64,000 nt of DNA, from contig JBAXSP010000004.1 of the NCBI GenBank assembly GCA_037130655.1, positions 337-64,336 on the forward strand, written 5' to 3'. Position numbers and translations under genes: made by a program. Under the pieces are notes generated by a model, which searched no databases, was not told the origin of the DNA, and worked only from the letters and a program-made list of their open reading frames with translations. Source of the DNA: a bacterium (GTDB lineage: Bacteria; Patescibacteriota; Minisyncoccia; Phycocordibacterales; UBA9973). Below, one piece after another: positions 1,644 to 60,017 of the stretch; the first letter of the stretch is position 1; each line of letters opens with the position of its first letter.

Positions 1644-1646
1644 ATA

Positions 1647-5135: not shown

Positions 5136-5157
5136 ATATACACAAAGTATATCACTG

Positions 5158-5258
5158 TCAGTTGATAGTTGTTAGTTGATAGTTGTGAGAAAAACAAAAG
5201 CGTGATGGACGAAGTCCATCACGCTTTTGTTTTTTATTAGTCACTAGTTATTGAACAT
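5158..5258. repeat. Heptamer-array/terminator composite element, copy 2 (variant left arm AGTTGAT/AGTTGTT)
   Basis: Left arm tcagttgatagttgttagttgatagttgtgag. Hairpin aaaagcgtgatggacgaagtccatcacgctttt. Right arm attagtcactagttattgaacatt. Confidence 0.6.
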
Positions 5259-5263
5259 TATAC

Positions 5264-7540
5264 TTATTGTCCAATTCCAAAGATTTTCTCAAATGTACTA
5301 CTGAAACCACATTTGTTTTTTGTATCATACAGTGGCTGTTGGCTTTGTTTAACACTATCATAATATGTCTTTCCTGTGTCATATGCTAAACCTAAATTAT
5401 ATCCATCTGACCAACTAATATCTGATTTACAATTAAATCCAATTCCATCACCTACTACACCTTGACCGTAGTCAAATGCTGCAAACGATCGCTGAACAGC
5501 ATCTTGTATGCCGGCCCACGGAACACCACCCTTTTGTTCTTTGTCTTCTTTTCCAAATGAATAAAATACATTCGTATTTGCATCTGCACGGGGATTGTTA
5601 TAATTAGTATACGAAACACTACCGTCTTTATTATACCGAGGAACATTAATCTTATAACCACCAACATCATCATCATCATCATACAAAGACTCACTTAAAT
5701 GTGTCCACGATAAAATCAATTCCTGTCCTTGTTTATGATTATCCCAACGACAATCTTGTGTATCCCCTGAGGCACTTGCTTGATCTGTGTCAAAAATAAT
5801 CGAACTATCAACATAAAATGGTGCGATTCGACGTTTTGGACTCTTTGATGGATCTGGCACCAAATCTCCATTTGCAATATCTTGTGTTTGCTCCTGACAG
5901 ATTGAGGTTAGTTCTTTGACGTAATTTTTTGAATTTTGTAATTCTTCAATATCATGACCGATACCTGCGATTGCTTCTGGTGTACGAATCTGTGGTAGTA
6001 ATCTGAAAAATTGTCTGAGCAACTTGTCATATTCCGCTTGTTCATCAGTTGTCAAAATAATTGGTGTATTTTGTCCTGAAGTACCATTTGAACAAGTATT
6101 TCCTGTAGTGTCTGGAACATAAGTATCAGTGTCGAAGAAATTATCCTTGTCGAGGTCTGGGCAGTATATTTTTTGCAAATTTAACGGAAGATTATCACAC
6201 AAATCAGTTCCTGTATTTGTTGTTTGTATTTGAATACTAGTATTTGCACGAAGGGTTTTACCTGCTTTAGTAACACAAGAGATAGCATAGCGTGAATCTT
6301 TGTTTTTTGGAGTTACTCCAAAATTTTGTACTGGAGTGGTGTTATCAGGTACAGGTTTTGAGCCGATCCATGACGATGTATCTACACCCCCAGTAGAAAC
6401 AGTTGCTCCTGCTCCGACTCCTTCACAAGAAGCAAATGCTGTGCCTGCAGGTGAAAACCAAAAGAGTGTACTTGTACCGTCTGGTTGCACCACTTCCGGT
6501 GAAGCAATCAAAGATAATTCTTTTGAAGCATCAGCATTTGGATTACATTCTGGCATCAAAACAGAAACATTTGCAGGATATATACTACAATCTTTTGTTG
6601 TATTCCCTGATGTTCCATCGTCAAGAATAAGTGCCACTTGAGCAACAACATATTCTTTTGGTGGAGTAGTGTCTGCTGTTTCTACCTGACTCTCTGCAGT
6701 ACCAAAACCAATAGTACTTGCAGTTTCAGTTTTTGCAGTAGAACTTAGTTGTGCTTGTACTGGTTTTTCACAGGTGAGCACATAGATAATTTCTTTGTCA
6801 CCATATGGCATTTGAGTTTTTTTGGTTTGCGGTTTTGTAGGTACTGGCTGTTTACCATTCCAGTTATATAACTTACTTTGTACATACGCAGTTGCGTTGA
6901 CACCTTTTGATTTCAAATCTTTTTGCTGATAGACCCCACCCGCATATGAACCAACGCAGCTTGCAAAATCCATTTTTGTTGGAGATGACCAAGAGATAGT
7001 GAGTTGATCTTTTGTTTTCGCCGTATCAGTTGAAGCGGTCACTACCAAATCTTTGGTTGCAATCGTATCTCTTTTGATTAACTCTTTGAGTGCATCCTCA
7101 TTGTTTGAGGGAATAGCAGAAGGTCCATTGTCTGAATTTGTATCTAATACATCTTGCAATAATTCAGTAGACGTATCTTTGCTATCAATAACACCATCTT
7201 TGTTGGTATCAATCACTGCATCTTTGTTGTTGATTACACCATCACCATTGGTATCTTTGGTTGGAATAAGTGAACCTTTTAAAGGAATAGTACTTCCGGT
7301 GGTTGATGATGCACTTGTGTTGTTTGTAGCATCTTCTGCTGTACCATTTTTGATGGTATCTTTTTTCTTTGGCAAAAGATTCCCAAGATCGACAAAAAAT
7401 TGCGCGCGTTGATTTGCGTCTTTGGTGATAGGATTTGCAACTTGCTTACTACCAATCAGTATCGCCAAAATTGCAACGACTAACACAACAAAAATAAGTG
7501 CTACTATTTTTATTCTTTTTTTCTTTTCTTCATTCATCAT
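5264..7540 (-). CDS. Secreted or membrane-anchored hypothetical protein with Asp-rich calcium-binding-like repeats (DTNGDGVINNKD / DTNKDGVIDSKD)
   Basis: 758 aa. N-terminal TM (IVALIFVVLVVAILAILIG), Thr/Ser-rich linkers, and tandem D-x-D-G-D-G-like repeats typical of thrombospondin type 3 or dockerin-like Ca-binding loops. Confidence 0.5.
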   Translation of the reverse strand: MMNEEKKKRIKIVALIFVVLVVAILAILIGSKQVANPITKDANQRAQFFVDLGNLLPKKKDTIKNGTAEDATNNTSASSTTGSTIPLKGSLIPTKDTNGDGVINNKDAVIDTNKDGVIDSKDTSTELLQDVLDTNSDNGPSAIPSNNEDALKELIKRDTIATKDLVVTASTDTAKTKDQLTISWSSPTKMDFASCVGSYAGGVYQQKDLKSKGVNATAYVQSKLYNWNGKQPVPTKPQTKKTQMPYGDKEIIYVLTCEKPVQAQLSSTAKTETASTIGFGTAESQVETADTTPPKEYVVAQVALILDDGTSGNTTKDCSIYPANVSVLMPECNPNADASKELSLIASPEVVQPDGTSTLFWFSPAGTAFASCEGVGAGATVSTGGVDTSSWIGSKPVPDNTTPVQNFGVTPKNKDSRYAISCVTKAGKTLRANTSIQIQTTNTGTDLCDNLPLNLQKIYCPDLDKDNFFDTDTYVPDTTGNTCSNGTSGQNTPIILTTDEQAEYDKLLRQFFRLLPQIRTPEAIAGIGHDIEELQNSKNYVKELTSICQEQTQDIANGDLVPDPSKSPKRRIAPFYVDSSIIFDTDQASASGDTQDCRWDNHKQGQELILSWTHLSESLYDDDDDVGGYKINVPRYNKDGSVSYTNYNNPRADANTNVFYSFGKEDKEQKGGVPWAGIQDAVQRSFAAFDYGQGVVGDGIGFNCKSDISWSDGYNLGLAYDTGKTYYDSVKQSQQPLYDTKNKCGFSSTFEKIFGIGQ

Positions 7541-7545
7541 ATATA

Positions 7546-9651
7546 TTAATGTACACCTACATTACCTGTTGTTCCATTGGCCGACCCAGTAGTGGTACCA
7601 TTTGTTGTATTGTTGGTTGTGTTATTACTTGTTGCATTCCCACCAATTCCTGTTGCAGTACCTGCGCCAGTTGTTGTACCTCCAGGACCATATGTTGCAC
7701 CACCGCCGACACTTGTCGTACCGTTGGCATTACCAGTATTTCCAAAAATTCCACCAAATGGTTCTATTGTGCCGAGACAAGCCGGATCAATTGGAAGTGC
7801 ATTAATATTATCTACTTGTACTTTTTGCCCTGGGCCATATTTTAGTTTTGCTTCATCCGCCAAACGTTTGTATACCCTATTCATCAAATTATCCATTTTC
7901 TTTTGAACTGCAAAAACTTGATTGGTTGTTGCCATAACATCGATAGCTTCGTTTTGATTGTCTAAAATTTGCTGTGAATATTGTGGCCACAGTTCAAGTT
8001 CTTTGTTGGCAGTTCTTGCTATCGGCATGACGTTTGGATTTGTCACATATGTGTTGCTGATGAAGTTGTTGTACAGATCAACTGAATCTCGATATGAACC
8101 ACGGAGTACAGAGAGGATGCCGTTAATGATTGTCTGAGCATCAATTGATTTCCAAAAACTCTGCCAGCCACTAACAGTAACACTTTTGATTAGAGCATTA
8201 TGCAACCCATCAAGACGACTATTGATAACAGCATCAGCATTATCTTCCCATCCAGGACGAGGACCAGGAATACAATAGGAAAGATCGTGCAGTGGGTACC
8301 CACACCAATCTGTTGTCATCTCATTCAAATTATCACTATATTTAGCCAAACTAGATTCATAGTTTACATTCCCTGAACCTGCACTTGCTTTGTTTAATTG
8401 CTTGATTCGACGAGCAACTGACGGAGCATCTTTGTTTGCACTATACTGATCGAGTGTTTTTTGGTCTCCAATATAACTGAGCTGTGTAATCAACACGTCA
8501 GGCAGTATTTCATGATCAAACACCCGTGGGTCGATTGGTTTGTTTGGGGCAACTTTCAACCAATCAGATGCATCACCATTCGTAAAACCACCACTAATAC
8601 CTGAGACGGAATTATTAAGCCCAGGACCACCTGATGCATAAGAATCGGTAGTTTTTCCTTTTGAAAGACTTGAAAGACCTCGTTTGATCAATTGATCGGT
8701 CAATGCAGTGAAGATTTTTGAAACAGACGTATTTACATCATTAGCGATTTCAAGTTGGCGACCCGTTGTCCCAAGTGCTTGATTGATTTGATTTTGCACC
8801 ACAGAACCAGGTGTGACCACCTCCCATCGATTACAAGTAACTTTTGGATCTGCTTTGTGTGCTTCGACATACCCTGCTGGGTCTACACATTTTTTGACTG
8901 ACAAAAAGTTTGGTTGTGACAATTCTGCTTGTACTGCGCCAACTTTTTGATTGATAAGCTTATCTGATTCTTCAGCAAGATTGATACTCACCCCTAGTGG
9001 ATTATTTCTTTCACTGAGTGTCACACTTTTCCAAGCAGCCCAACCACCACCTTCACTAAAATCTTTTTTGAACACTTTTGGATCAGGACCAGTATATTTG
9101 AAATTATCGAGCGGACTCAAAGATACTTTTCTGTCAGTAATCAATTGCCGAAGTGCAGATTTTGCATACGGAGAAAATGATGGGTCGTCTTCATATTTTG
9201 CAAGTAATCCATTTTTGAGACCATTGATTGATTCATTTTCAATACTCGCAAAAAAAGATTCACGATTTCGAATATACAGCGGATTTCCATCAAATCCACT
9301 ATTAATCCAGTTAACAATACTTTCAGTAAGTTGTTGTAATACTACACGAGCAAGAGATACAGCAATCGCATCAATACAAGCTTTTGTATTGTTTGCTTTT
9401 GCTTGTTGTTTGTCATCAACCTTAACAGCGGCAGTACCTAGTGTCGATCCAGCTTTTTCTTTTGCTTTTTCTTTAAGACCTGAAATAATTCCTTTCCCAA
9501 GCAAACAACCCGCCAATGAAGATGCTGTAGCCGAACCGAGCGAAGCACCAAGTGAAGCACCGTCGAGCGCTTCAGCTTTTGGAGGAATAGCAACAATCAA
9601 AAAACTAACGAGCAGTATTGAGGTGATTGTTTTTTTGAAAAAAGTAAGCAT
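7546..9651 (-). CDS. Secreted hypothetical protein with C-terminal Gly/Thr/Asn-rich low-complexity tail
   Basis: 701 aa with an N-terminal signal peptide (MLTFFKKTITSILLVSFLIVAIPPKAEA). The C-terminal ~70 aa are GTTTGAGTATG-type low complexity. Confidence 0.5.
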   Translation of the reverse strand: MLTFFKKTITSILLVSFLIVAIPPKAEALDGASLGASLGSATASSLAGCLLGKGIISGLKEKAKEKAGSTLGTAAVKVDDKQQAKANNTKACIDAIAVSLARVVLQQLTESIVNWINSGFDGNPLYIRNRESFFASIENESINGLKNGLLAKYEDDPSFSPYAKSALRQLITDRKVSLSPLDNFKYTGPDPKVFKKDFSEGGGWAAWKSVTLSERNNPLGVSINLAEESDKLINQKVGAVQAELSQPNFLSVKKCVDPAGYVEAHKADPKVTCNRWEVVTPGSVVQNQINQALGTTGRQLEIANDVNTSVSKIFTALTDQLIKRGLSSLSKGKTTDSYASGGPGLNNSVSGISGGFTNGDASDWLKVAPNKPIDPRVFDHEILPDVLITQLSYIGDQKTLDQYSANKDAPSVARRIKQLNKASAGSGNVNYESSLAKYSDNLNEMTTDWCGYPLHDLSYCIPGPRPGWEDNADAVINSRLDGLHNALIKSVTVSGWQSFWKSIDAQTIINGILSVLRGSYRDSVDLYNNFISNTYVTNPNVMPIARTANKELELWPQYSQQILDNQNEAIDVMATTNQVFAVQKKMDNLMNRVYKRLADEAKLKYGPGQKVQVDNINALPIDPACLGTIEPFGGIFGNTGNANGTTSVGGGATYGPGGTTTGAGTATGIGGNATSNNTTNNTTNGTTTGSANGTTGNVGVH

Positions 9652-23429: not shown

Positions 23430-23674
23430 AGAAGGTCATTGGTGGTGAAAAATCGCCATATATAGCATTGAGCCATATAATAAAAAGAGTATAGTTGCCA
23501 CTAGAATGAAAAAATATTTCAGACCATTTTTAACAATCACCCCTTCGGTGTTAGCTTCTTCTAAATTTGTCATAATACTAATTGATTTGCTCCATTTCAA
23601 TTATGCGCTTATGCAAAACTTTTGCAAGACGACAATCACATCTCCATTGTGCGACACTACGCTATAATAGAAAC

Positions 23675-24589
23675 ATGTACGATCTCGCTCAACTCAAACG
23701 CCAGTTTCTCGAACACGTTGAAATAGAAAAAGGGCAGAGTCTCAAAACGGTCGAAAATTATGACCGCTACCTTACTCGATTCCTCGCTTTTGCCAAGGTC
23801 ACCGACCCCAAAGATATTACCGATGATATTGTTCGTGAATTTCGTCTTTTTCTCAACAGACAAACTGGAATGAAGGTTCGCGGTCAATCTGCCGCCACCA
23901 TGAAGCGCAACACACAAAACTACTATCTTATTGCGCTTCGTGCATTTCTTCGTTATCTCATGAAAAGAAATGTCACTTCCCTGCCACCCGATCGTATTGA
24001 GCTCGCAAAGATCAAAGAGCGTCACTTAGACTTGATGACGACAGCAGAACTACACCGCCTCCTTGAAGCACCAGACAAAACAACATCTGTTGGACTTCGT
24101 GACAAAGCAATCCTTGAATTATTTTTCTCCACCGGACTTCGTCTTTCCGAACTCTGTTCACTCAATAGTGATTTAGATTTATCACGAGATGATTTTTCTA
24201 TTCGCGGAAAAGGTGAGAAAGTTCGTGTTGTCTTTTTGTCTGAAGAAGCAAAGCTTGCTATTCGTGAATATTTGAAATCTCGCAAAGATATGAATGAGGC
24301 ATTGTTTGTGCAAATTTCAAAAAACAATATCGGTACTGGCCGTCTGACCCAACGTTCAATCGAGCGCATTGTTCGTCATTACGCAACCAAAGCCGGTATT
24401 TCAAAAAAAGTTACTCCACACGTTATTCGTCACTCATTCGCCACCGACCTCCTTTCCAACGGTGCAGATATTCGTAGTGTGCAGATGATGTTGGGTCACG
24501 CAAACATTGCAACAACACAGATTTATACCCACGTGACCGATGCACAACTGAGAGATGTTCATAAGAAATTTCACAGCAAAAGAAAATAA
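23675..24589 (+). CDS. Tyrosine site-specific recombinase, XerC/XerD family
   Basis: N-terminal SAM-like domain. C-terminal catalytic residues ...LGLRLSEL..., HVIRHSFATDLLSNGADIRSVQMMLGHANIATTQIYTHV (R-H-R-Y). The start was set at MYDLAQLKRQF. Confidence 0.85.
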   Translation: MYDLAQLKRQFLEHVEIEKGQSLKTVENYDRYLTRFLAFAKVTDPKDITDDIVREFRLFLNRQTGMKVRGQSAATMKRNTQNYYLIALRAFLRYLMKRNVTSLPPDRIELAKIKERHLDLMTTAELHRLLEAPDKTTSVGLRDKAILELFFSTGLRLSELCSLNSDLDLSRDDFSIRGKGEKVRVVFLSEEAKLAIREYLKSRKDMNEALFVQISKNNIGTGRLTQRSIERIVRHYATKAGISKKVTPHVIRHSFATDLLSNGADIRSVQMMLGHANIATTQIYTHVTDAQLRDVHKKFHSKRK

Positions 24590-28764: not shown

Positions 28765-28947
28765 ACAAACAATTTTGTGCGGGGTAGGAGAATCGTTCCT
28801 TACAGGAACAGTACCCTAATTGGCTGTTTTGTTTCGCATTGCTCCACAAAACAGCTCAATCAGGCTTCGATTCTTTGCTCGTGTTTCATAAGAAACACTT
28901 GCGCTTACCCCACACAATAACTAAGGAAATATACAGTATTTTTATTG

Positions 28948-29018
28948 TGCGGGGTAGGAGAATCGAACTCCTGTCTCATCCTTGGCAAGGACGCATTCTA
29001 CCACTAAACCAACCTCGC
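28948..29018 (-). tRNA. tRNA-Gly (anticodon GCC)
   Basis: The reverse complement folds as a cloverleaf. Anticodon loop CCTTGCCAAGG, T-arm AGGAGTTCGATTCTCCT, and acceptor GCGAGGT/ACCCCGC with one A:C mismatch. Confidence 0.7.
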
Positions 29019-29089
29019 TATTATTTTTTAATACGACTATTATAACGACTCTTTCATAAAAAAGCAATTTGTGTAATAATGCAACTATT

Positions 29090-29161
29090 GCACTTGTGGT
29101 GAAATGGATATCACAGCGGTCTTCGGAACCGTTATTCTGGGTTCGAGTCCTGGCAGGTGCA
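29090..29161 (+). tRNA. tRNA-Arg (anticodon TCG)
   Basis: Acceptor GCACTTG/CAGGTGC, D-arm GTGAAATGGATATCAC, anticodon loop CTTCGGA, T-loop GGGTTCGAGTCC. Confidence 0.7.
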
Positions 29162-29348
29162 CAAAAAAAACGTAGTTTTTCCTGTCTCCGCAAGTGTTTT
29201 CCTTAGAAAACACGAGGACGGACTCGAAAAGCTTTTGTAGTAGATTTCGGGCACCATAAAGAAATCTACTCAAAAGCTGTACTGTTCCTGTAAGGAACGA
29301 GTCCTGGCAGGTGCACCAAATAGTAAGTTTACTTATAAGTCCTTAATA

Positions 29349-29606: not shown

Positions 29607-30002
29607 ATGCCAAAAGTTTTTACTTCGAAAACACAAAAACTTGGTGAAATAGGGGAGAATCTAGCTTGTGCGTTTCTTATGAAACACGGTTTTTCTATTG
29701 TTGAGCGTAATTTCACCATTTCTTCTGGTGAAATTGATATTATTGCAAAGAAAAAGGGGATTATTCACTTTGTAGAAGTAAAATCAGCTTCTGCAAACTT
29801 CAATCACAGCGTTACACGTGCAACAACCGTTGATCCTATGGAAAACATGCATCCTATGAAAATGAAGAAATTCCTCCGAGTGGTACAGACATATTTATTA
29901 AACAAAGATATATCTGAAGATTTTTCTATAGATTTAGCCATTGTGTATATAGATGAAGTTAAAAAACAGGGGAAAGTAGAGCTGTTTGAAAATATTGCAT
30001 AA
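29607..30002 (+). CDS. YraN-family (UPF0102) endonuclease-like protein
   Basis: GEIGENLACAFLMKHGFSIVERNF...GEIDIIA...HFVEVKS matches the YraN/UPF0102 signature. Confidence 0.7.
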   Translation: MPKVFTSKTQKLGEIGENLACAFLMKHGFSIVERNFTISSGEIDIIAKKKGIIHFVEVKSASANFNHSVTRATTVDPMENMHPMKMKKFLRVVQTYLLNKDISEDFSIDLAIVYIDEVKKQGKVELFENIA

Positions 30003-30056: not shown

Positions 30057-30581
30057 TTATCTATCTAACAACATAATTTGATTTGATCCATCTACTTTCA
30101 CAAGTAGATAACCAAGCTGACCATCTACATACTGGTGACTAATAGTGTAATCACCAGATAACCAAGCTGTTGGAACTTTTCTTGTTTGAGTTACCCAAAC
30201 ATCTTGATTAGGGAGAGGAAAGTTCATCCTAATTACAGGAACAGGACCATTCCCCAGATCAACATATGTCTCAATCATTTGAGCGGATATATACTGATCA
30301 CCAGGAAGTTTGTTACCGTCTTCATCCAAAACAGATGTGTCGGGTAGGTAATACAAACCAGCCAAACTGTCTTTGAAGGAAATCTTCCATTTTGACTGGC
30401 CGTATTGTGTATAACCCAAACCAAACCTGTTAACATTTACACCCTCAGCAAACCAAAGAGGGAACTCTTTGCCTGAAAGTTGTTTATCTTTTTCAGGTAA
30501 AGTAATCACTGTCGGTTTTTTTCTGCAACCAGTAACAGCTATTGTCACCAATAGAATCGTTAAATATATTGTATTTTTCAT
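30057..30581 (-). CDS. Hypothetical lipoprotein
   Basis: 174 aa with signal peptide and lipobox (LTILLVTIAVTGC). Confidence 0.5.
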   Translation of the reverse strand: MKNTIYLTILLVTIAVTGCRKKPTVITLPEKDKQLSGKEFPLWFAEGVNVNRFGLGYTQYGQSKWKISFKDSLAGLYYLPDTSVLDEDGNKLPGDQYISAQMIETYVDLGNGPVPVIRMNFPLPNQDVWVTQTRKVPTAWLSGDYTISHQYVDGQLGYLLVKVDGSNQIMLLDR

Positions 30582-30654
30582 GTGCCTTTATTTAATTGTA
30601 CTTATATTATATCAAATAAATAATAAAAAGTCAATGGCATATTGTATAGATTTA

Positions 30655-30711
30655 GACTTCCCGCACATAAGAAAAACCCTCAATATTGAGGGTTTTTCTT
30701 ATGTGCGGGAT
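30655..30711 (-). terminator. Long perfect hairpin (24-bp stem) formed by the tRNA-Gly(TCC) 3' trailer folding back onto the tRNA acceptor/T-stem 3' strand
   Basis: cccgcacataagaaaaaccctcaa-tatt-gagggtttttcttatgtgcggg. The right arm is the tRNA 3' end itself. Confidence 0.6.
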
Positions 30712-30774
30712 AAGAGAATCGAACTCTTGTCCCCTGCTTGGAAGGCAGGTATTCTACCACTAAACCAATCCCGC
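30704..30774 (-). tRNA. tRNA-Gly (anticodon TCC)
   Basis: Acceptor GCGGGAT/ATCCCGC perfect, anticodon loop CTTCCAA, T-arm AGAGTTCGATTCTCT. Confidence 0.75.
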
Positions 30775-30816
30775 ATAAGTTGAACTAAAACTTACTATTT
30801 AACTATCATTTCTTAG

Positions 30817-30887
30817 TCGGGGTGCCGAGAATCGAACTCGGCTCTCACGGTCCCAAACCGCGTATACTACCGATGTACTACACCCCG
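30817..30887 (-). tRNA. tRNA-Pro (anticodon TGG)
   Basis: Acceptor CGGGGTG/CACCCCG, anticodon loop TTTGGGA, T-arm CCGAGTTCGATTCTCGG. Confidence 0.75.
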
Positions 30888-30993
30888 ATTAAGCATTAGC
30901 CCAACTGATGATCATCATACCATATTCATGTTTTTTTTCAACTTTTCTCATAAAAAACAGCCCGAAGGGCTGTTTTAAAGAATAGATTATTTG

Positions 30994-32001
30994 TTATTGC
31001 TTACGAAACGTTCTAAATACCGGTTTTTCATTTTCATCAGAGGATGAAAAGAAATATGTTCCAGGGCTTAGACCGTTTAAATCAATATTCGTCTGACTAG
31101 TAGTACCGACAAATACCTTTCTCCCGCTAACATCAATAATGGTTACTGTTTTCCCGGATGGAAAACCTGATAATATCAAGTTATTAGCGACAGGATTAGG
31201 GAAAATACTTATCACCGGAACGGTTTGTTGACCGACGGTAATTGTAGTAAATTTTTCTGTTCTGCCGTTTAAATCAACTTCGATCAAACGATAATAACAA
31301 AATTCATCCACCATATCTGTGAAAGAATATGTTTGAAGTGTATTACTTGTACCAACGGCCTTTATTTGAGCTATTGGAACAAAATTAATACCATCAAAAC
31401 TTCTTTCTACAGAAAAATAGTCTGCATTCTGCTCAGCCGCAGTCTGCCAAATAAGTAGATTCTTACCATTTTGAGCTGTCCCTTTGAAGGAAACAATGTT
31501 CACTGGCAATGGCTCATTGCTTTTGTCAGTAAATGTTCCGGCAGAGATACCTGCCTGTAGGGAATTGGTATTCCACGTTAGATCGGTGTTGTCCGAAGAC
31601 GTACCGCTATTTGCAAATACAACAGTGCACAAGTCAGTAAAACTCGTAGGAATAGCGATTCTCGAAACAGGGGCCGTTATGGTGAGACTACAGATACCTG
31701 TAGTGTTATCATAATTGGCATTTAATGAATAACCGGTCCACGCAGGATCCATTGACGAAGTTGTAATTGAAGTAACTTTACTGAAATTTGATATCGTAAA
31801 AACAAAAATATTTACATCAAGACTATCCAAAGAAGACAGCCTGATTTGAGGAGTGACCGTGAGGCTAGTAGCCGACACAGAAGAGGATACAAACTTTCCG
31901 TCCATGGTTGTTTGGGCAGATACTGACATGCAGATGCAAAGCATTGCGAGGGCGATTGAATATATTTTTTTCATTGTAATAACTGGATTTATTTCCTTCA
32001 T
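30994..32001 (-). CDS. Secreted protein with C-terminal T9SS-type (Por secretion tail) sorting domain
   Basis: 335 aa with a signal peptide. The C-terminal ~75 aa (ISIFPNPVANNLILSGFPSGKTVTIIDVSGRKVFVGTTSQTNIDLNGLSPGTYFFSS...) fit the Por_Secre_tail/TIGR04183 pattern (FPNPa...l.i......v.i.d..Gr.v.......id.s.L..G.Yf). Confidence 0.55.
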   Translation of the reverse strand: MKEINPVITMKKIYSIALAMLCICMSVSAQTTMDGKFVSSSVSATSLTVTPQIRLSSLDSLDVNIFVFTISNFSKVTSITTSSMDPAWTGYSLNANYDNTTGICSLTITAPVSRIAIPTSFTDLCTVVFANSGTSSDNTDLTWNTNSLQAGISAGTFTDKSNEPLPVNIVSFKGTAQNGKNLLIWQTAAEQNADYFSVERSFDGINFVPIAQIKAVGTSNTLQTYSFTDMVDEFCYYRLIEVDLNGRTEKFTTITVGQQTVPVISIFPNPVANNLILSGFPSGKTVTIIDVSGRKVFVGTTSQTNIDLNGLSPGTYFFSSSDENEKPVFRTFRKQ

Positions 32002-32040
32002 TACTATATATCAGATAAATGGTTTTGTAAAGAAAAACCC

Positions 32041-33138
32041 TCAGACAAGCTGAGGGTTGGGTTTTTTACCTAATTTTTTCAAAACTACATAATGTGAATA
32101 AAGAGCGTCCCAGAATGTAGGGAATTCGTTGTAAGGAAGATTACCTTCTTTACAAACCTGTTTTACAAATACACTGATTTCTGGATAACGATCGTGACTA
32201 ATTTTGTGTTCGAGATGGTGTTCAATTTGACGATTCAAGCCACCTGCATACCATCTCCAAAACTTACTATTTGGTGCAAAATTTGCAGTGGTCAGAATTT
32301 GATGCACCGCGTTTTCATGTGGGATAACATTGTGTTCCATTCCCAAACTTGCAGGAGTGTCAACCATATCGGTCAGATCAACGACATGTGCCAATTGAAA
32401 GACAGTGCTGATGATAAGTCCGACCGAAAAAGCAATAATTCCATATGCAACAAAAACTTCTGTCCATGAGTAACCGAAGAAGTAGTGAGGCATGAGAATA
32501 AAAATTGCAACATGTAATACTTTGCTCAACCAAAAAATGAAATGGTCTTTTATTTTGAAATTTAGTTTCGCAGGACCAACACGTCCGTTAAAATAATTTG
32601 CAAAATCTGAATACCAAATCCATGTAAGATATCCGAAGACACCGTAAACCAACCACATGTACACATGCTGGAATTTCATCCAAGGCTTCCATTTTTGTGA
32701 TGGATGAAGTCGTGCAATAAACGGAATACTAATATCAGTATCGTATCCGTGTACATTTGTGTAAGTATGGTGGACCACATTGTGTTTTATTTTCCAAATT
32801 CTGATGTTGCCACCAAGAATATTGAGCCAAAAACCCATTGCGTCATTTATCCAACCCTTTTCAGAAAAAGATTCGTGACCACCATCATGCATTAAATTGA
32901 ACCCTATTCCTGCTATAACTGCTCCGAAAAACATCAAGAGTAGTATAGAAAAAAATAGCGGCAGATTAGTTGTTGCGAGCACAAAATATGAAATAGCCCA
33001 AAGGGACATAAAAATCCATGCTTTTGTATGCAACACATGCGTTCCCGTTGATCCATATTTTTTAAGATACGGATCAACAAGTTCCTTAAGTCTTTTTTTG
33101 AACCAAGGAGAGGTTGCTTTAAATATTAATTTTTCCAT
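32041..33138 (-). CDS. Membrane fatty-acid desaturase (His-box family)
   Basis: Three histidine boxes (HDGGHESF, HNVVHHTYTN, QIEHHLEH) and multiple TM helices. Confidence 0.8.
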   Translation of the reverse strand: MEKLIFKATSPWFKKRLKELVDPYLKKYGSTGTHVLHTKAWIFMSLWAISYFVLATTNLPLFFSILLLMFFGAVIAGIGFNLMHDGGHESFSEKGWINDAMGFWLNILGGNIRIWKIKHNVVHHTYTNVHGYDTDISIPFIARLHPSQKWKPWMKFQHVYMWLVYGVFGYLTWIWYSDFANYFNGRVGPAKLNFKIKDHFIFWLSKVLHVAIFILMPHYFFGYSWTEVFVAYGIIAFSVGLIISTVFQLAHVVDLTDMVDTPASLGMEHNVIPHENAVHQILTTANFAPNSKFWRWYAGGLNRQIEHHLEHKISHDRYPEISVFVKQVCKEGNLPYNEFPTFWDALYSHYVVLKKLGKKPNPQLV

Positions 33139-33292: not shown

Positions 33293-33568
33293 TTATTTTG
33301 CAACAGCATCTTTGAGAGCTTTTGCTGCGCGGAATTTTGGAACTCGTGTTGCTGGAACACTTACAGACGCACCTGTTTTTGGGTTGCGAGCTGTACGTGC
33401 TGCACGCATTTTTACAGAGAAGATACCAAGTCCAGCGATACTTACTTCTTCGCCTTTCTTCAAAGTACCAACTACTGCGTCCAAGATACTATCGACAACC
33501 ATTTCAGCTTGTACTTTTGTACCGCCGATTTTCTCTTGTACGAGTTCTACAATTGCTGCTTTGTTCAT
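33293..33568 (-). CDS. hup: HU-family DNA-binding protein
   Basis: MNKAAIVELVQEKIGGTKVQAEMVVDSILDAVVGTLKKGEEVSIAGLGIFSVKMRAARTARNPKTGASVSVPATRVPKFRAAKALKDAVAK. The start was trimmed to the internal ATG at 33568. Confidence 0.9.
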   Translation of the reverse strand: MNKAAIVELVQEKIGGTKVQAEMVVDSILDAVVGTLKKGEEVSIAGLGIFSVKMRAARTARNPKTGASVSVPATRVPKFRAAKALKDAVAK

Positions 33569-35535: not shown

Positions 35536-35660
35536 ATAATGACCAATGTTCAATGACCAGTGACAAATAATTCGAATCAAAAGAGCGAAGCCGTAGGCTT
35601 CGCTCTTTATTATTTGGTGATTTTAATTAGTCATTGGTCACTAGTCATTAGACATTACTT
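35536..35660. repeat. Heptamer-array/terminator composite element, copy 6 (abuts the clpP stop codon)
   Basis: ataatgaccaatgttcaatgaccagtgacaaat / aaagagcgaagccgtaggcttcgctcttt / ttaattagtcattggtcactagtcattagacatt. Confidence 0.75.
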
Positions 35661-36239
35661 CTTCTTGTTTCCCATTACATCATCAATCAATCCGTATTTT
35701 TTTGATTCATCAGCACTCATCCAGTAATCACGATCACTGTCTTTTTCAATTTGTGCGTATGTCTTGCCGGTATTTTTTGCCAAGATTTTGTACAGATTTT
35801 CTTTGAGCTTGAGAATATGCTTTGCAGTAATTTCTACATCAGACGCTTGTCCTTCGATGCCAGTTAGTGGTTGGTGGATCATCACTTCAGAATTCGGTAA
35901 TGCAAAACGCTTACCTTTTGCACCAGCAGAGAGAATTATAGCCCCCATACTTGCCGCCATACCAATACAGATAGTAGAAACATCACATTTGATATGATTC
36001 ATTGTATCTAAAATCGCAAGACCTGATTGGATACTTCCTCCTGGAGAGTTGATGTAGAGAGAAATATCTTTCTTTGAATCAGAATGTTCCAAGAAAAGCA
36101 GTTGAGCGATAATAATATTTGCTACCTGGTCATCAATCGGACCACCGAGGAAAATAATACGTTCGTTCAAAAGGCGAGAGTAGATGTCATACGCTCGTTC
36201 GCCATTCATTGTTTTTTCGATAACTGTTGGGATTAACAT
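35655..36239 (-). CDS. clpP: ATP-dependent Clp protease proteolytic subunit
   Basis: [24 protein letters not shown]...[18 protein letters not shown]...[11 protein letters not shown]...MIHQP is the catalytic Ser-His core. Confidence 0.95.
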
Positions 36240-37594: not shown

Positions 37595-37801
37595 TTCTAA
37601 TGTCTCACTATCTGTCGAAGAGGCAACAGAATCAAGTGTTGCAGTGTTTTCTTTGACCTCAAGATTGATTTGATCTGATACAGGATCTGAGGCGAGTGGT
37701 TTTTTATTTACCTTATTACTTATATACGAAAGAGAAACACCCCCTATAATTATAAGGAGTATTAAAATAACTAGTTTTTTTCCATTATTTGTCATTTGCA
37801 A
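37589..37801 (-). CDS. Small membrane-anchored hypothetical protein
   Basis: 70 aa with TM KLVILILLIIIGGVSLSYI. Confidence 0.35.
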   Translation of the reverse strand: MQMTNNGKKLVILILLIIIGGVSLSYISNKVNKKPLASDPVSDQINLEVKENTATLDSVASSTDSETLEQ

Positions 37802-38261
37802 TACTTATGACGATTGAACGGAGCAATTTATTACTGTCATTAGTATTGTCACGCAAAGAATTTATGGTGTTTTGTTTACTTGCAAAAAATTTTGCCGTTG
37901 GATCAATGATTTTGATAGAACTTAGTTCGTCGACATATGATTTTGCAAGTTCAATGTTTTTATTCACAATATCCCAATTTGTTTGTGTCTCTGTAGATAA
38001 AACTTTTCCGTTTGATGTATACTCAGCAATCATTTTTTCTACTTTTTGATAGCGTGCTTGTGTACGAAGCAGGGGAGACGCAAAAATACCATCGATCTTA
38101 TACGTACGAGCTTTTGGTTCGATAATTTCTACTGTAGAAGTTGCTTGAACTGTTGTTGATGTAGCTTTTGGAGTAATAGTGGTTGTTTTCTTAACAGTCA
38201 CAGCGTTTCCAATAAGAGGAAGAAAGAAGAGTGGCAACAAAAGAATAGAGATGTATTTCAT
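37785..38261 (-). CDS. Secreted hypothetical protein
   Basis: The start was trimmed to MKYISILLLPLFFLPLIGNA (signal peptide). Thr-rich region. Confidence 0.45.
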   Translation of the reverse strand: MKYISILLLPLFFLPLIGNAVTVKKTTTITPKATSTTVQATSTVEIIEPKARTYKIDGIFASPLLRTQARYQKVEKMIAEYTSNGKVLSTETQTNWDIVNKNIELAKSYVDELSSIKIIDPTAKFFASKQNTINSLRDNTNDSNKLLRSIVISIANDK

Positions 38262-38353
38262 AGAGTAAGTATACAACAAAGAAAAGTATAAGGAATTAGT
38301 ATAAGTATGAGGAAACAAAAGAGCGAAACCTTTCAGGTTTCGCTCTTTTGTTT

Positions 38354-40229: not shown

Positions 40230-40436
40230 ATTTTATTTTTATTTAATTTTGCTAATTTTTCTAAAAATAATGCCCGCTTTTGGCGGACATTACTATTAAT
40301 ATCTTTATATTACATAACAAAACAGGAAAACACAAGTCATTCACTTTTTATTTTTTATTGTTGTAATGATTTTTTATTTTTTCAAAAAAATGTAAAACAG
40401 GCTTTGTTTTGTAAGACTATTAACAACTTGTTCAGG

Positions 40437-40487
40437 TTATCCACAGGTTTTCAACATATTTTTTAGATTTTGGGGAGTTTATCCACA
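40437..40487 (+). promoter_or_regulatory. Two perfect DnaA boxes (TTATCCACA) upstream of dnaA
   Basis: ttatccaca at 40437-40445 and 40479-40487, within the AT-rich region preceding the dnaA start. Confidence 0.75.
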
Positions 40488-40503
40488 GAACATAAAAGCT
40501 ATA

Positions 40504-51955: not shown

Positions 51956-52022
51956 GAATGAAGACTTGACAAACATATTGTATTGTGATACAATCTTGTT
52001 AGAAATCAAATAATATACAAAA

Positions 52023-53342
52023 TTGAAACAGTACATTTTAAACATCAAAAAAGTCCTTTTTACGGCAATCATTGTTTTGGTTGTGTCAGCAAAAGGCTAC
52101 ACAAAAAATTCTAACGATACTACTTGGCATCATTTGCCATATAGTAAAAATCCAACCACTCAAAAAACCGGAGCAGAAATTGCGGAGGGGATTGAGAATG
52201 GAACACTTGAACTGAACATGAGTATTGATGAGTTTGTAATTCAAAAAACAAACATTATCAACATTTATTGCAAACGCGACAAATGGAAAGATGCTCAAGG
52301 AAATCTGGTGGCCCCATACAAAGCCTCGAGGCAATTCATTGCTTCAATGTATCGGAACGCAAAACTGCAAACCGCAAGTTGGCAGTCCGACCAAGCATTG
52401 GTTTTTAGATTAACAACCGGAAGTATTGGTTCTGGGAAAAAAGAGAAAGTAGTCATAAAATATTTTGACTACTGGAACAGAAATCCTTACCAAAACGAAG
52501 GAATGTTTACAATTAGCCCAAGTGCTTTGTCCGATGTTGTTGGTAATTATCCAGATATTAATTTGGGTAGCAACCAGTGTTTGAATGATATTTTTATCAA
52601 ACAAATACAACAGCAACCAATCGCTCAGACTCCTGCTCCTTGCACAACATGTAATCAGCAGGTACAGCAACAGGTGTACCAGCAACCACAACAACAGCCA
52701 TGCAACAATTGCCAACAAGTGCAATGTCAGGGTGGATGTAACACGTGGAGCGGTATTCCTGTTAGAGTTCCGGCGATCTACACAGATCAGTACACAAGTC
52801 CGTGGTGGAACTTCAATGGCTATCCTCCAAACGTTAACTGTAACTACGGTTACGGAAACATGGGGTATGCACAACAAGGTTGTGGGTATTGCGGTGTTGT
52901 TGGTTGTAATGGTGGTTGTTATGGAAGAGGGAGAAATCCTTATCCGTATATGATTGCAGGACAATTAATCAGTGCTGGAACAATGCTCGGTTTGGCTTAT
53001 TTTAGCCAACCGCAACAAACCATTTTGGTTCAAAACTACAATACAACGACTTCAAATGGTGGAACGTCTCAGACGTGGACACCGACCAATAACGGGAGCG
53101 GTATTGTTGTTACCCCTGGGGGGAGCACATCAGCACTTAATTGGGGCACTGGAAACAGTAACAGTGGTGGAACAAACCAAACAAACACAGGTCTTAACTG
53201 GGGAACCGGAAACAGTTTCGGTGGTGGAACAAACCAAACAAACACGAACTTTAACACAGGAACTGGAAACAGTTTTAATGGAGGGGGTTCGTCAAATTGG
53301 GGAGGAACATCTTATGTTATTCCTGCTCAATGGTTGCGTTAA
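52023..53342 (+). CDS. Secreted Cys- and Gln/Asn/Gly-rich hypothetical protein with internal tandem repeats
   Basis: 439 aa with a signal peptide. A QQ/C-rich middle region, and the C-terminus has ~19-aa tandem repeats (NWGTGNS.GGTNQTNT). Confidence 0.5.
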   Translation: MKQYILNIKKVLFTAIIVLVVSAKGYTKNSNDTTWHHLPYSKNPTTQKTGAEIAEGIENGTLELNMSIDEFVIQKTNIINIYCKRDKWKDAQGNLVAPYKASRQFIASMYRNAKLQTASWQSDQALVFRLTTGSIGSGKKEKVVIKYFDYWNRNPYQNEGMFTISPSALSDVVGNYPDINLGSNQCLNDIFIKQIQQQPIAQTPAPCTTCNQQVQQQVYQQPQQQPCNNCQQVQCQGGCNTWSGIPVRVPAIYTDQYTSPWWNFNGYPPNVNCNYGYGNMGYAQQGCGYCGVVGCNGGCYGRGRNPYPYMIAGQLISAGTMLGLAYFSQPQQTILVQNYNTTTSNGGTSQTWTPTNNGSGIVVTPGGSTSALNWGTGNSNSGGTNQTNTGLNWGTGNSFGGGTNQTNTNFNTGTGNSFNGGGSSNWGGTSYVIPAQWLR

Positions 53343-53468
53343 GTTTTTTTTTTGTAATATTGGGCATCGTTTCGATGATGCCCTCTATTTTTAAGTATTT
53401 GTGATACATTTGTAGTCGCACGAATACTCAAAAATGGAGGAATCCATTGTTAAGTAATAAATAATTAT

Positions 53469-55298
53469 ATGAATAAAACAATACAAAAAATAATCAAACT
53501 GGTATCGTTTTCTGCGCTCGCACTTTTTGCTAGTGCAACTTTTGCGTCTGCTACACAGTTTCCAACTGTGTCAGTGATGAATGCAACAAACAATCCAGGG
53601 TGTAATTTTGCACAATGTGGATCATCTTCAGTTTCTGCAAACCCTGGAGATATTATCTCTGTGCAAATCTTTTACAATAACACAACAGCAAGTGCACAAA
53701 ATGTGACACTTAGTCTTTCTCCTCGTACACAAACAGGAACAACTTTTTCTTTCACTGGATCTGCAAGTAATGCAGGAAGTGGAACAGTAAGTGTGACTGT
53801 TTCAGGAGGACAATCACAAACAGCAACATTGATGTCTGGTACTGCTCGTTGGTACAAAGATATTCCAACAAATAACCAACTCGTAAACGGTGTGTCTGTT
53901 GACTCACTCTTTGCTGGAAGTTTTTCAGTTGGAACACTAGCTCCGGTACAAGGTAATGCTTCTCCGAACCAAGGTGTGCTTGTTGTCGATTTCCAAATTT
54001 CAAACAATCAATATCAACCACAAACATACGCATGTAATGATGGGATTGATAATGATGGGGATGGATACCGAGACTATCCAAGCGATAGTGGTTGTACAAG
54101 TGCAACTGATAACGATGAATACAATACTCCAATCAATACTATTATTTGGGGATGTATGGATTATCGTGCAACGAATTACAATGCAAGTGCAACTCGTGAT
54201 AACGGAAACTGTACTTATGTAAACAACAACACAACAACATATGTGTGGGGTTGTACAAACTCAAGTGCATACAACTATGATTATCGTGCAAACCGTGATG
54301 ATGGTTCTTGCCGATATAACAACAATAATAACTCCACAAACAACCAAAGCCCAACTGTTGCTACAACAATGGCTACAAACATTTCAACGAGTGCTGCCCG
54401 ACTAAATGGTATTGCGTATGCAAACAACAATAATACAAACGTATGGTTCGAATGGGGTCAAACAACTTCATACGGAAATCGTACAAACACTGTTTCAATT
54501 GGAACAGCAAATGGACAAGCAATGTCTGATTCTATTTATGGATTGCAAGCTGGTACTATTTATTACTACCGAGCAGTTGCTCAAAATAATTTCGGTACTG
54601 TGTACGGTGAACGCGTATGGTTCCGAACAACTGGTGATGGTGTGGTAGATTCTACAAACACAACGACTACAAAAATCGTATACATTCACGATAGTTCAAA
54701 AACAGTCAATTTGATTCCTGCACAAACAGTGCCATCATTGATTGCACTTCGTATTGAAAACAAATTTGATTCTGTGTGTACTGGAGATAATCTTGAATAC
54801 ACCGTAACGTATCAAAACGTTTCGGGAAAAACAATTTCAAACGTAGTACTACAAGTAGTACTACCAGGCGGAGTTAGTTTTGTAAGATCATCAAATGGTT
54901 CATTTGATAAAGATTCAAACACACTCACTATCCCACTTGGAACACTTACTCCAAACCAAACTGGAACTGCGTATGTATCTGCTCACATTGATACAATTGC
55001 AAGTGATACTGATATCGTAGTTACAACTGCGCGTATGGTATACACTCACCCAGTAAGTGGTGCACAAGAAGATGTGATTGCATATGATATCAATCATAAA
55101 GGTGCATGTAGTTCAATTGGACTCGGTGCTGCAGCATTGTTTGGAAATGGATTTTTCCCAACAACATTCTTCGGATGGTTGCTATTGATTCTTGTAATCT
55201 TGATTCTTGTATTGATTGCTCGCAATCTCTATGATCGCAAAAGACTAACTAATACAAAAACAAGTAGTAGTACAAACACAACAACTTTGTCGCAGTAA
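53469..55298 (+). CDS. Cell-surface hypothetical protein with Ig/Fn3-like and DUF11-like segments, an IDNDGDG Ca-binding-like motif, and a C-terminal TM anchor
   Basis: 609 aa with a signal peptide. CNDGIDNDGDGYRDYPSDSGC; a tandem Cys-containing ~30-aa repeat; an Fn3-like WFEWGQTTSYGNRT...YYYRAVAQNNFGTVYGERVWFRT; C-terminal LLLILVILILVLIA. Confidence 0.5.
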   Translation: MNKTIQKIIKLVSFSALALFASATFASATQFPTVSVMNATNNPGCNFAQCGSSSVSANPGDIISVQIFYNNTTASAQNVTLSLSPRTQTGTTFSFTGSASNAGSGTVSVTVSGGQSQTATLMSGTARWYKDIPTNNQLVNGVSVDSLFAGSFSVGTLAPVQGNASPNQGVLVVDFQISNNQYQPQTYACNDGIDNDGDGYRDYPSDSGCTSATDNDEYNTPINTIIWGCMDYRATNYNASATRDNGNCTYVNNNTTTYVWGCTNSSAYNYDYRANRDDGSCRYNNNNNSTNNQSPTVATTMATNISTSAARLNGIAYANNNNTNVWFEWGQTTSYGNRTNTVSIGTANGQAMSDSIYGLQAGTIYYYRAVAQNNFGTVYGERVWFRTTGDGVVDSTNTTTTKIVYIHDSSKTVNLIPAQTVPSLIALRIENKFDSVCTGDNLEYTVTYQNVSGKTISNVVLQVVLPGGVSFVRSSNGSFDKDSNTLTIPLGTLTPNQTGTAYVSAHIDTIASDTDIVVTTARMVYTHPVSGAQEDVIAYDINHKGACSSIGLGAAALFGNGFFPTTFFGWLLLILVILILVLIARNLYDRKRLTNTKTSSSTNTTTLSQ

Positions 55299-55299
55299 G

Positions 55300-55368
55300 C
55301 GACTAGCTCCTAGCATCTAGCTACTAGCTAAAAAAAGAACAGCGACCTTTGGTCGCTGTTCTTTTTTT
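55300..55368. repeat. Variant heptamer-array/terminator element (CTAGC-type arm)
   Basis: gactagctcctagcatctagctactagcta, then the hairpin aaaaaaagaacagcgacctttggtcgctgttcttttttt. The right arm is absent. Confidence 0.55.
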
Positions 55369-59820: not shown

Positions 59821-60017
59821 AAAACCTTTTGAAAGGCACACGATTTTTGCACTACAAAAATCGGGTCGAAAGAAAGAATATGACGAAGTCGTATACTTTT
59901 TTCGACATTTTTTCAAGGCAGAAAAAATGCCTCTTTGCTCGGAAACAACCAAAAGAAAAACACCTGTCGGTGTTTTTCTTTTGGTTGTTTCCTGTGCAGA
60001 GCCTTTCAAAAGGTTTT
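59821..60017. mobile_element. 197-bp element with perfect 17-bp terminal inverted repeats (AAAACCTTTTGAAAGGC) enclosing a 24-bp perfect hairpin
   Basis: 59821-59837 aaaaccttttgaaaggc and 60001-60017 gcctttcaaaaggtttt. The internal hairpin ggaaacaaccaaaagaaaaacacc-tgtc-ggtgtttttcttttggttgtttcc is at 59950-60001. The right TIR overlaps the dsbB-like stop codon. Confidence 0.5.

Follow-up and report, generated by a model that had tools for sequence, protein, structure and literature searches.

Copies of tRNA 3′ ends are found downstream of tRNA genes in islands that integrate at tRNAs and at the attachment (att) sites of prophages. Genomic plasticity zones, or hypervariable slots, are recognised by conserved flanks, variable cargo, breakpoints in the flanking core genes and internal tRNAs. 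Here, we compare with both kinds of locus a segment that lies at positions 30057-33138 of a 64-kb stretch of contig JBAXSP010000004.1 (the whole stretch analysed is called the window). The segment codes for a membrane fatty-acid desaturase, a secreted protein that ends in a sorting tail of the type IX secretion system (T9SS) type (the tail protein), and a small lipoprotein. An original prediction had proposed it as a candidate horizontally acquired island bounded by tRNAs. The three open reading frames (ORFs), the internal tRNA-Pro/tRNA-Gly(TCC) pair, the Por_Secre_tail domain, the three histidine (His) boxes of the desaturase and the lipobox of the lipoprotein were all confirmed at their positions. 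We consider it likely, however, that the segment is cargo of a recombining slot between the HU and YraN genes, in which the desaturase would be an old resident, the content of the slot would have been replaced within the clade, and the tail gene would have been gained.

The locus shares with plasticity zones the conserved flanks, the variable cargo, the breakpoints in flanking core genes and the internal tRNAs. It differs from them in that the slot is very small (0.3-8 kb) and without integrase or att repeats, and in that, in this clade, the tRNA blocks themselves switch orientation between genomes. As in tRNA-integrated islands, copies of tRNA 3′ ends lie downstream of tRNAs in the window. 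In this clade, however, the copies are found 48-214 nt from the tRNA, enclose no genes and come without an integrase, and, unlike att sites, they serve as the closing helix of an RNA-like structure that is conserved and shows covariation.

Two of the encoded proteins also have known counterparts. Like the type A cargo proteins of the T9SS (TIGR04183/PF18962; RgpB, PorU and PorZ of Porphyromonas gingivalis), the tail protein has an N-terminal Sec signal peptide, a C-terminal β-sandwich of about 70 aa with FPNP and G-x-Y motifs that scores above the curated cut-offs, and a preceding FN3/Ig-like domain, and its predicted fold matches PorU and PorZ. Unlike them, it belongs to a Patescibacterium thought to be without an outer membrane, with no T9SS gene in the 64-kb window. 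Moreover, its N-terminal passenger is without detectable relatives, the nearest homologues being 35-37% identical over the C-terminal half. The desaturase has the length (about 360 aa), the three His boxes with a third box of the form Q-x-x-H-H, and the Pfam match across the full domain that characterise front-end acyl-lipid desaturases (PF00487; cyanobacterial DesD/delta-6; 'linoleoyl-CoA desaturase' in the JGI annotation), but it sits in a lineage thought to be without fatty-acid synthesis and often assumed to be anaerobic.

Conserved flanks and a divergent slot

By its protein sequences, the window belongs to the Paceibacteria (Patescibacteria, or Candidate Phyla Radiation, CPR). The RNase Y encoded next to the segment is 96% identical to that of a metagenome-assembled genome (MAG) contig, L001, and 55-74% identical to those of about 80 Paceibacterota, 'Nomurabacteria' and Patescibacteria MAGs, with dozens of Paceibacterota/Nomurabacteria MAGs at about 70%. 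The gene set of the window includes DnaA/DnaN, NusA, trigger factor, ClpP, PolA, PBP1, a PilB-type ATPase and a PrgI-type protein. For comparison, we used 80 Paceibacteria loci (1.4 Mb fetched in total, with about 20 kb sampled per genome) and a sister lineage made up of five contigs (L081-L085, from JGI, ENA, NCBI and Logan), which together give 85 relative loci. A tblastn search of the 80 loci with the window proteins returned the gene order NusA-PPase-trigger factor-ClpP-RNase Y-HU-…-YraN(-)-CCA-adding enzyme(+) in most relatives. The HU gene (33293-33568, minus strand; Pfam Bac_DNA_binding) is the conserved right flank of the segment. The YraN/UPF0102 gene (29607-30002, plus strand; Pfam and NCBIfam) is the conserved left flank; it sits between the segment and the tRNA-Gly(GCC)/Arg pair and had gone unmentioned in the original prediction. 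With the tRNAs included, the full backbone would read NusA-PPase-trigger factor-ClpP-RNase Y-HU-(slot with tRNA-Pro/Gly(TCC))-YraN-tRNA-Gly(GCC)/Arg-CCA enzyme.

In 32 loci, the complete HU-YraN slot was present on the contig. The gap between the two genes ranges from 341 to 8154 bp among the relatives, and its cargo includes desaturases, ZIP-like and MscL-like membrane proteins, TrmB-like regulators and small secreted proteins. The window has four tRNAs at the locus, identified with ARAGORN and Rfam and scoring 56-71 bits with the Rfam tRNA model: tRNA-Gly(GCC) (28947-29018, minus strand) and tRNA-Arg(TCG) (29090-29162, plus strand) on the far side of YraN, and tRNA-Gly(TCC) (30703-30774, minus strand) and tRNA-Pro(TGG) (30816-30887, minus strand) inside the segment. 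About 25 of the 32 relative loci scanned have the same four tRNAs at corresponding places, in an order and orientation that vary between genomes. Their conservation shows that the tRNAs are native parts of the locus and not the borders of an island, as had been proposed. We conclude that the three genes occupy a fast-changing accessory slot within a conserved housekeeping and tRNA locus.

The internal tRNA pair forms, together with its promoter, a block of 249 bp (30693-30941, minus strand; delimited with ARAGORN, Rfam and blastn) in which a promoter scan detected a promoter-like TTGAAA-16-TATGAT. In blastn comparisons, the block matches the sister lineage at 83.7% and is inverted relative to it. 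The block is a native part of the locus. Relative to the sister contig L081 (4933-5422 and 3359-3589), both tRNA pairs of the window (28773-29320 and 30693-30941) are in inverted orientation, and in two other loci, L024 and L051, Gly(GCC) and Gly(TCC) have exchanged positions. These repeated changes in the order and orientation of the tRNAs among the Paceibacteria point to small inversions that recur and that end at tRNA genes or at the structured modules trailing some of them (see below).

The sister contigs carry the order RNase Y-HU-desaturase-tRNAs-175-aa ORF-YraN. The identity between window and sister proteins is 98% for NusA, 96.5% for PPase, 97.7% for trigger factor, 96.5% for RNase Y, 100% for HU, 87% for YraN and 92-95% for the CCA enzyme; within the segment, the desaturases share 60% and the lipoproteins 65%. 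Divergence from the sister at synonymous sites (dS) is 0.13-0.79 across eight flanking genes (with HU at 0.13), and reaches 2.41 for the desaturase gene and 1.37 for the lipoprotein gene. Similarly, the identity at fourfold sites is 0.36-0.39 in the segment versus 0.60-0.93 in the flanks (Fisher p = 2e-9). In a sliding-window comparison, the DNA is 94-99% identical through HU, about 60% identical immediately past the HU stop codon (~33300), and 83-91% identical again from ~30060-30100, at the 3′ end of the lipoprotein gene. These sharp breakpoints nearly match the coordinates that the original prediction had given for the segment.

Two genes on the right flank are also less conserved than their neighbours, which are 96-98% identical to the sister. 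ClpP (35655-36239, minus strand) is 82% identical, with a ratio of nonsynonymous to synonymous divergence (dN/dS) of 0.17 and a normal dS of 0.76, and an unannotated ORF of 177 aa (37785-38318, minus strand) is 76% identical. Because dS is raised in the segment, and because ClpP combines a high dN with a normal dS, fast protein evolution alone is insufficient to explain the divergence of the segment. The segment NEVERTHELESS has a history of its own, deeper than that of its flanks. The best reading of the sequences is that homologous recombination would have exchanged the content of the slot with that of a more distant relative in the same clade.

With regard to composition, which had been suggested as a check for foreign DNA, the segment is native in GC content (0.37-0.385), in GC at third codon positions (GC3, unremarkable) and in tetranucleotides (z from -0.7 to +0.85). 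Only the lipoprotein gene is an outlier in codon usage, with the most atypical value in the window (z = 8.1). No integrase or mobility gene was found between 27.2 and 35.3 kb. The nearest recombinase gene (23582-24589) was considered as a possible island integrase and rejected; it is XerC/D-like and about 5.5 kb away from the segment. Repeats of the att type were also sought, and none brackets the segment or the 1080-bp insertion described below, the longest shared word being 7-8 nt. The tRNA 3′-end duplicates that had been taken as integration-like (28777-28796 and 29297-29316) do exist, but they lie about 140-155 nt from their respective tRNAs and do not bracket the three genes. No 3′-end copies of tRNA-Pro or tRNA-Gly(TCC) were found.

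The desaturase and lipoprotein genes

The desaturase gene (32041-33138, minus strand) codes for a front-end-like membrane fatty-acid desaturase of 365 aa. The protein matches FA_desaturase (PF00487) with 107 bits over profile positions 6-252 of 253, and its translation shows the three His boxes HDGGH, HNVVHH and QIEHH, the third of the Q-x-x-H-H form; no NCBIfam equivalog and no solved relative were found. A terminator-like hairpin, detected in a terminator scan, lies over the stop codon (32036-32058, minus strand) and is kept in the sister lineage. The gene has a codon usage typical of the window (z = -0.5) and is under purifying selection, with a dN/dS of 0.13 relative to the sister. The predicted protein is most likely an O2-dependent di-iron membrane enzyme that introduces double bonds into membrane-lipid acyl chains. 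As lipids are thought to be scavenged by CPR bacteria, the desaturase would represent a lipid-remodelling step.

A desaturase had been regarded as unexpected in a gene set of this kind. Its best named database matches are indeed from Chitinophagaceae (Niastella, Puia) and other Bacteroidota, with 42-46% identity, and only the identical protein and one match with 60% identity rank above them. Yet, 18 of the 80 relatives carry a homologue between HU and YraN, in most cases as the next gene after HU; among the 32 loci whose slot is complete, 10 do so. The window protein groups with those of the Paceibacteria. In a neighbour-joining (NJ) tree, it formed a clade with L001 and P0038 (bootstrap 100%), and this clade joined the HU-adjacent Paceibacteria desaturases of L009 and L014 (bootstrap 84%); exclusive grouping of the window desaturase with Bacteroidota-type sequences occurred in none of 500 replicates. 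The Bacteroidota sequences form a compact cluster with short branches, and the Paceibacteria sequences are on long branches. This difference in branch length is probably the reason for the higher identity of the window desaturase to those of Bacteroidota.

Synteny in the relatives, the grouping in the tree and the native codon usage exclude a recent island origin of the desaturase. We regard it as a long-standing accessory gene of the Paceibacteria that has been kept at this position. This case illustrates how best-hit taxonomy misleads in fast-evolving CPR genomes, since a desaturase that matches Bacteroidota is a long-resident, syntenic gene of the Paceibacteria. The recurrence of a putative O2-dependent lipid desaturase in a lineage thought to scavenge lipids also bears on how CPR bacteria tune their membranes. 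We found no literature tying fatty-acid desaturases to CPR/Patescibacteria; one candidate paper dealt with carotenoid desaturases.

The lipoprotein gene (30057-30581, minus strand) encodes a small protein of 174 aa with the N-terminus MKNTIYLTILLVTIAVTGC. Inspection of the translation shows a lipobox VTG↓C, and the sequence MKNTIYLTILLVTIAVTG↓C conforms to the pattern [LVI][ASTVI][GAS]C. A promoter-like TTGACT-17-TATAAT lies upstream of the gene (30634-30606). The sister lineage carries an ORF of 175 aa at this position, and this orthologue, with ...LTASC, differs from the window gene with a dN/dS of 0.17. The lipoprotein had no Pfam or NCBIfam match and only nine matches among 1.84 billion representatives. 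A few of these are small proteins, and the others match in part only, to Ig-like repeats within giant surface proteins. An attempt to derive a function from distant matches was abandoned, as these were generic Ig-like or prealbumin-like repeat proteins and uninformative. The protein is best described as a putative small surface lipoprotein restricted to the window and sister lineages.

As to best-hit taxonomy, the test of foreignness suggested in the original prediction, the named matches of the desaturase and of the tail protein are Bacteroidota, and the lipoprotein, with its few matches, is common to the sister lineage. Judged by what the original prediction said would refute it, the desaturase and lipoprotein genes, two of the three, count as native.

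The tail gene and the origin of the segment

Between the desaturase gene and the tRNA block lies a stretch of 1080 bp (30942-32021, minus strand) without a counterpart in the sister lineage, as delimited by blastn against L081-L084 and by the junction sequences. At this site, the sister lineage has about 28 bp and a second hairpin after the desaturase terminator. The stretch contains the tail gene, an ORF of 335 aa (30994-32001, minus strand; PF18962 and TIGR04183) for which the ATG at 31974 is the likely start, giving a protein of 326 aa. The gene is preceded by a promoter-like TTTACA-17-TATAGT (32031-32003; promoter scan) and followed by a terminator-like hairpin with a T-run (about 30953-30976). 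No repeats flank the 1080-bp insertion. An independent Logan assembly (L086), with RNase Y-HU-desaturase-tail gene-tRNAs, is 100% identical to the window over 4977 bp. Since this match runs across the insertion junction, the junction is not an artefact.

The tail protein is made up of a signal peptide (MKKIYSIALAMLCICMSVSAQ), a unique N-terminal region of about 140 aa, an FN3-like domain (about aa 165-255) and the tail (aa 266-326). By inspection of the translation, the Sec signal peptide is MKKIYSIALAMLCICMSVSA↓Q. Residues 266-326 of 335 score 37.7 bits with PF18962 Por_Secre_tail, against a cut-off of 27, and 36 bits with TIGR04183, against a cut-off of 23. In an alignment with 15 homologues, N260, P261, G284 and G305 are invariant, and all are retained in the window protein, which has the C-terminus ...GTYFF...FRTFRKQ. 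The FN3-like domain has the signature 'W-T-E-N…VERS-DG…YYRL-VD-DG'. An AlphaFold2 model of the FN3-like and tail domains (aa 155-326) is a β-sandwich with per-residue confidence (pLDDT) of 74-96, with the C-terminal 170 aa also put at 85-96, and Foldseek matched these C-terminal domains to tandem FN3 folds, including PorU (6za2) and PorZ (5m11). The N-terminal region of about 140 aa had no homologues, no PDB sequence match and a low-confidence model.

A search of 5.8 billion proteins found only the identical protein to be close, and the other matches were at most 37% identical and covered the C-terminal half. The best Bacteroidota-type match is 35-37% identical, again over the C-terminal half only. 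One of the closest homologues, P0002, lies on a contig whose gene content is Bacteroidota-like and ordinary for a free-living bacterium, and the contig neighbours of the closest small homologue with FN3 and tail (P0005) were without Pfam matches. A viral origin of the protein was considered and rejected, as no relatives were found in IMG/VR. No homologue of the tail gene was detected at any of the 80 Paceibacteria loci or on the five sister contigs. We interpret the tail gene as a lineage-specific gain with a C-terminal module of the Bacteroidota type. As this module is common in Bacteroidota, the gene was probably acquired laterally, but not in recent times from a sampled donor.

In the mechanism that we propose, the content of the slot from the desaturase to the lipoprotein gene would have been replaced, in the window lineage or in the sister lineage, by homologous recombination with a more distant Paceibacterium, with crossovers where the HU and the lipoprotein genes end. 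The 1080-bp gene would have been gained between the desaturase gene and the tRNA block, separately or in the same event, and the tRNA block would have been inverted. The product of the gained gene would be exported through Sec and would consist of the unique N-terminal region, the FN3-like domain and an intact type A tail.

No T9SS component (SprA/Sov, PorV, GldK/L/M/N or PorU) was found among the approximately 50 proteins scanned in the 64-kb window. The tail therefore looks orphaned, in agreement with what had been supposed. CPR/Patescibacteria are considered to lack an outer membrane and lipopolysaccharide. With no evident T9SS, and in bacteria thought to be without an outer membrane, the tail is most likely not a T9SS export signal here; it has probably been kept as a folded Ig-like domain within a protein that is secreted or lies at the surface.

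Tails are also found elsewhere in the clade. A search of the 1.4 Mb of fetched loci with a profile built from the tail detected six further proteins, of about 430-445 aa, on other Paceibacteria contigs: in L004 (17710-19029, minus strand), L005 (142-1527, plus strand), L018 (2946-4295, plus strand), L022 (845-2179, plus strand), L044 (628-1998, plus strand) and L057 (19215-20561, minus strand). With 33-45 bits, all of them exceed the Pfam cut-off; each has a Sec signal peptide that ends in AQ, and their passenger domains, of the repeat or FG-GAP kind, may be β-propellers. Five of the six genes are in another variable slot just upstream of NusA, and the remaining one is between the CCA enzyme gene and an exo/endo-phosphatase gene. 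Immediately upstream of NusA, several relatives have insertions of tail-bearing and other secreted-protein genes. One of the six proteins was searched further and had only three close relatives. No literature was found that ties T9SS tails to CPR/Patescibacteria. That such tails recur in a phylum not known to possess a T9SS suggests that they may mark gene flow from a Bacteroidota neighbour or host, or else an unknown use of the domain.

The named Bacteroidota matches of the desaturase (42-46%) and of the tail protein, the tRNA genes and 3′-end duplicates close by, and the absence of the tail gene from the relatives would all fit a single recent island of three genes, derived from Bacteroidota and integrated beside the tRNAs. 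We consider this very unlikely. Eighteen of 80 Paceibacteria have the desaturase in synteny, and the window copy clusters with theirs; the lipoprotein is common to the sister, the tRNAs are conserved, there are no bracketing copies and no integrase, and GC, GC3, tetranucleotides and the codon usage of the desaturase gene are native. Moreover, the best Bacteroidota-type match of the tail protein reaches only 35-37% over the C-terminal half. For the desaturase and lipoprotein genes, a recent island is already largely refuted. Among close relatives, the desaturase is patchy but syntenic (18 of 80), the lipoprotein is shared with the sister, and the tail gene occurs in none of the 85 loci. The island interpretation is supported in part: what stands of it is the lineage-specific tail gene, with a C-terminal module of the Bacteroidota type and a tail that looks orphaned, and the deeper history of the segment. 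Bacteroidota-type domains in a CPR context could also result from an assembly or binning artefact that spliced a Bacteroidota fragment into a Patescibacteria contig. This is extremely improbable, however, given the identity of the separate assembly L086 over 4977 bp, the syntenic Paceibacteria genes on both sides of the insertion, the uniform composition, and the six other Paceibacteria contigs, up to 281 kb long, that hold tail proteins within conserved synteny.

Conversely, the neighbourhood could be purely vertical, with envelope proteins that evolve fast and a tail gene lost in the relatives. The native composition is consistent with this view, as is the same order of the desaturase and lipoprotein genes in the sister, and lower conservation is likewise seen in other envelope or accessory genes (ClpP at 82%, the 177-aa ORF at 76%). 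Nevertheless, dS in the segment is 2-4 times that of every flanking gene, the identity at fourfold sites is near random, the boundaries are sharp and fall at gene ends, and ClpP keeps a normal dS of 0.76 in spite of its raised dN. In addition, loss of the tail gene across the 85 relative loci would need many independent events. A purely vertical history is therefore unlikely. It also seems conceivable that the tail is functional, as an address label for an unrecognised export or anchoring route of the Paceibacteria, or for the T9SS or attachment machinery of a Bacteroidota host. Intact tails above the Pfam cut-off occur in seven of 81 Paceibacteria genomes, in samples of about 20 kb each, and on unrelated passengers (possibly β-propeller, FG-GAP, and the unique domain of the window protein) that all have Sec signal peptides, and the window protein keeps all the conserved tail motifs. 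Yet no T9SS component was found in the window, no host is known, the literature found offers no support, and each tail protein has very few relatives, as expected of transient accessory genes. We regard a functional tail as quite unlikely, and keep it under consideration because tails recur in the clade. If the tail docked onto, or were handled by, the T9SS or attachment complex of a Bacteroidota host, the tails would give a clue to the hosts of this CPR clade.

Several points weigh against a replaced slot with an old desaturase and a gained tail gene, the explanation that we prefer. The replacement can be assigned to the window lineage or to the sister lineage alike, and saturation and a scarcity of sites could have exaggerated the high dS values. 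The codon usage of the tail gene (z = 5.3) is in the upper part of the native range (RNase Y has 6.9), and thus there is no compositional proof that the gene is foreign. In a slot that changes this fast, its loss in the sister and in the other relatives, instead of a gain, is less parsimonious but possible. The search for T9SS genes covered 64 kb of the genome, and the intact tails in seven Paceibacteria genomes argue that the tail may have a function. As to the desaturase, the Bacteroidota-type cluster was recovered as one split in only 45% of the NJ replicates, in a tree without an outgroup. For this reason an ancient transfer is conceivable, from Bacteroidota to Paceibacteria or in the reverse direction. 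Finally, the activity, substrate and electron donor of the predicted enzyme are read from its family membership.

tRNA-trailing modules and other features of the window

In the window, tRNA-Gly(GCC) and tRNA-Arg(TCG) are each trailed by a structured module that ends in the copy of the tRNA 3′ end. The Gly module is at 28773-28946 (minus strand; copy at 28777-28796) and the Arg module at 29163-29320 (plus strand; copy at 29297-29316). Both are about 145 nt long, with an identical 20-mer, GTACTGTTCCTGTAAGGAAC, preceding the 3′-end copy, and they fold much better than shuffled controls do (z = -8.1 for Gly and -6.3 for Arg). In the fetched Paceibacteria loci, 39 of the 179 tRNAs counted (22%; Gly-TCC, Pro-TGG, Gly-GCC and Arg-TCG) have a 3′-end copy 48-214 nt downstream, and 37 module-bearing tRNAs lie beyond the window, in loci L002-L084.

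Independent folds gave a common architecture. An acceptor-like closing stem is followed by a first hairpin, GGAGAATCG-AAAG, a long variable hairpin, a hairpin with an anticodon-loop-like yTGTAAr loop, and then CGATTCTCC with the 3′ strand of the acceptor. Compensatory changes were found in 13 of 17 tested pairs (11 module copies), and the covariation score of 0.545 compares with 0.17 for shuffles, of which none in 500 reached it, and with 0.04-0.18 for slid controls. No Rfam family was found for the modules; at E<=1, only the four tRNAs and sub-threshold noise were returned. A viral source was considered and rejected, as a pattern scan of viral contigs gave 36 matches, about the chance number estimated by hand, and none beside a tRNA. 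The modules do not delimit the three genes and are not att sites for the segment. A tRNA-like processing or enzyme-binding RNA, or a miniature element that targets tRNAs, are candidates for what they are.

In the window, 11 nt lie between the end of the Gly(GCC) module and the ATG of the CCA-adding enzyme gene. In the sister, the inversion of the tRNA pair puts the Arg module in this place instead. The structure of the modules differs between contigs of one species (L083 and L081), which suggests that they recombine. The acceptor stem of tRNA-Gly(GCC) has an A4:C69 mismatch in the window (Rfam alignment, 28948-29018) and is fully paired in the sister copy. In the segment, tRNA-Gly(TCC) is followed by a palindromic terminator hairpin and then by TGTGCGGGAAG (30655-30702 in all, minus strand; from the sequence and a comparison with module starts). 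TGTGCGGGAAG itself (30655-30665, minus strand) adjoins the lipoprotein promoter and resembles the first strand of a trailing module; possibly, it is the stump of a module that was deleted or truncated. The recurring tails and the tRNA-trailing modules are more intriguing than the idea of an island, and the module may merit a study of its own.

Four further regions of the window were noted. At ~40230-40500, DnaA/DnaN diverge from NusA, and the cumulative GC skew has its minimum near 40 kb; together, these features suggest that the replication origin is probably located there. At 487-9651 (minus strand), a gene for a PrgI-family protein precedes three very large ORFs (1162, 758 and 701 aa), for which no Pfam or NCBIfam match was found. 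This is presumably the type IV-like cluster named in the original prediction. The most deviant tetranucleotide composition of the window (z = 3.3-3.7) is at 52000-55300, a region that encodes an unannotated ORF of 439 aa (52023-53342) and a DUF11-domain protein of 609 aa (53469-55298). In terms of composition, this region is a better candidate for foreign or surface-antigen DNA than the segment studied here. Lastly, genes for a PEMT/ICMT-type membrane methyltransferase (58395-58877, plus strand) and a DsbB homologue (60016-60543, minus strand) were found, which, together with the desaturase, hint at a capacity for envelope and lipid remodelling in a reduced genome.

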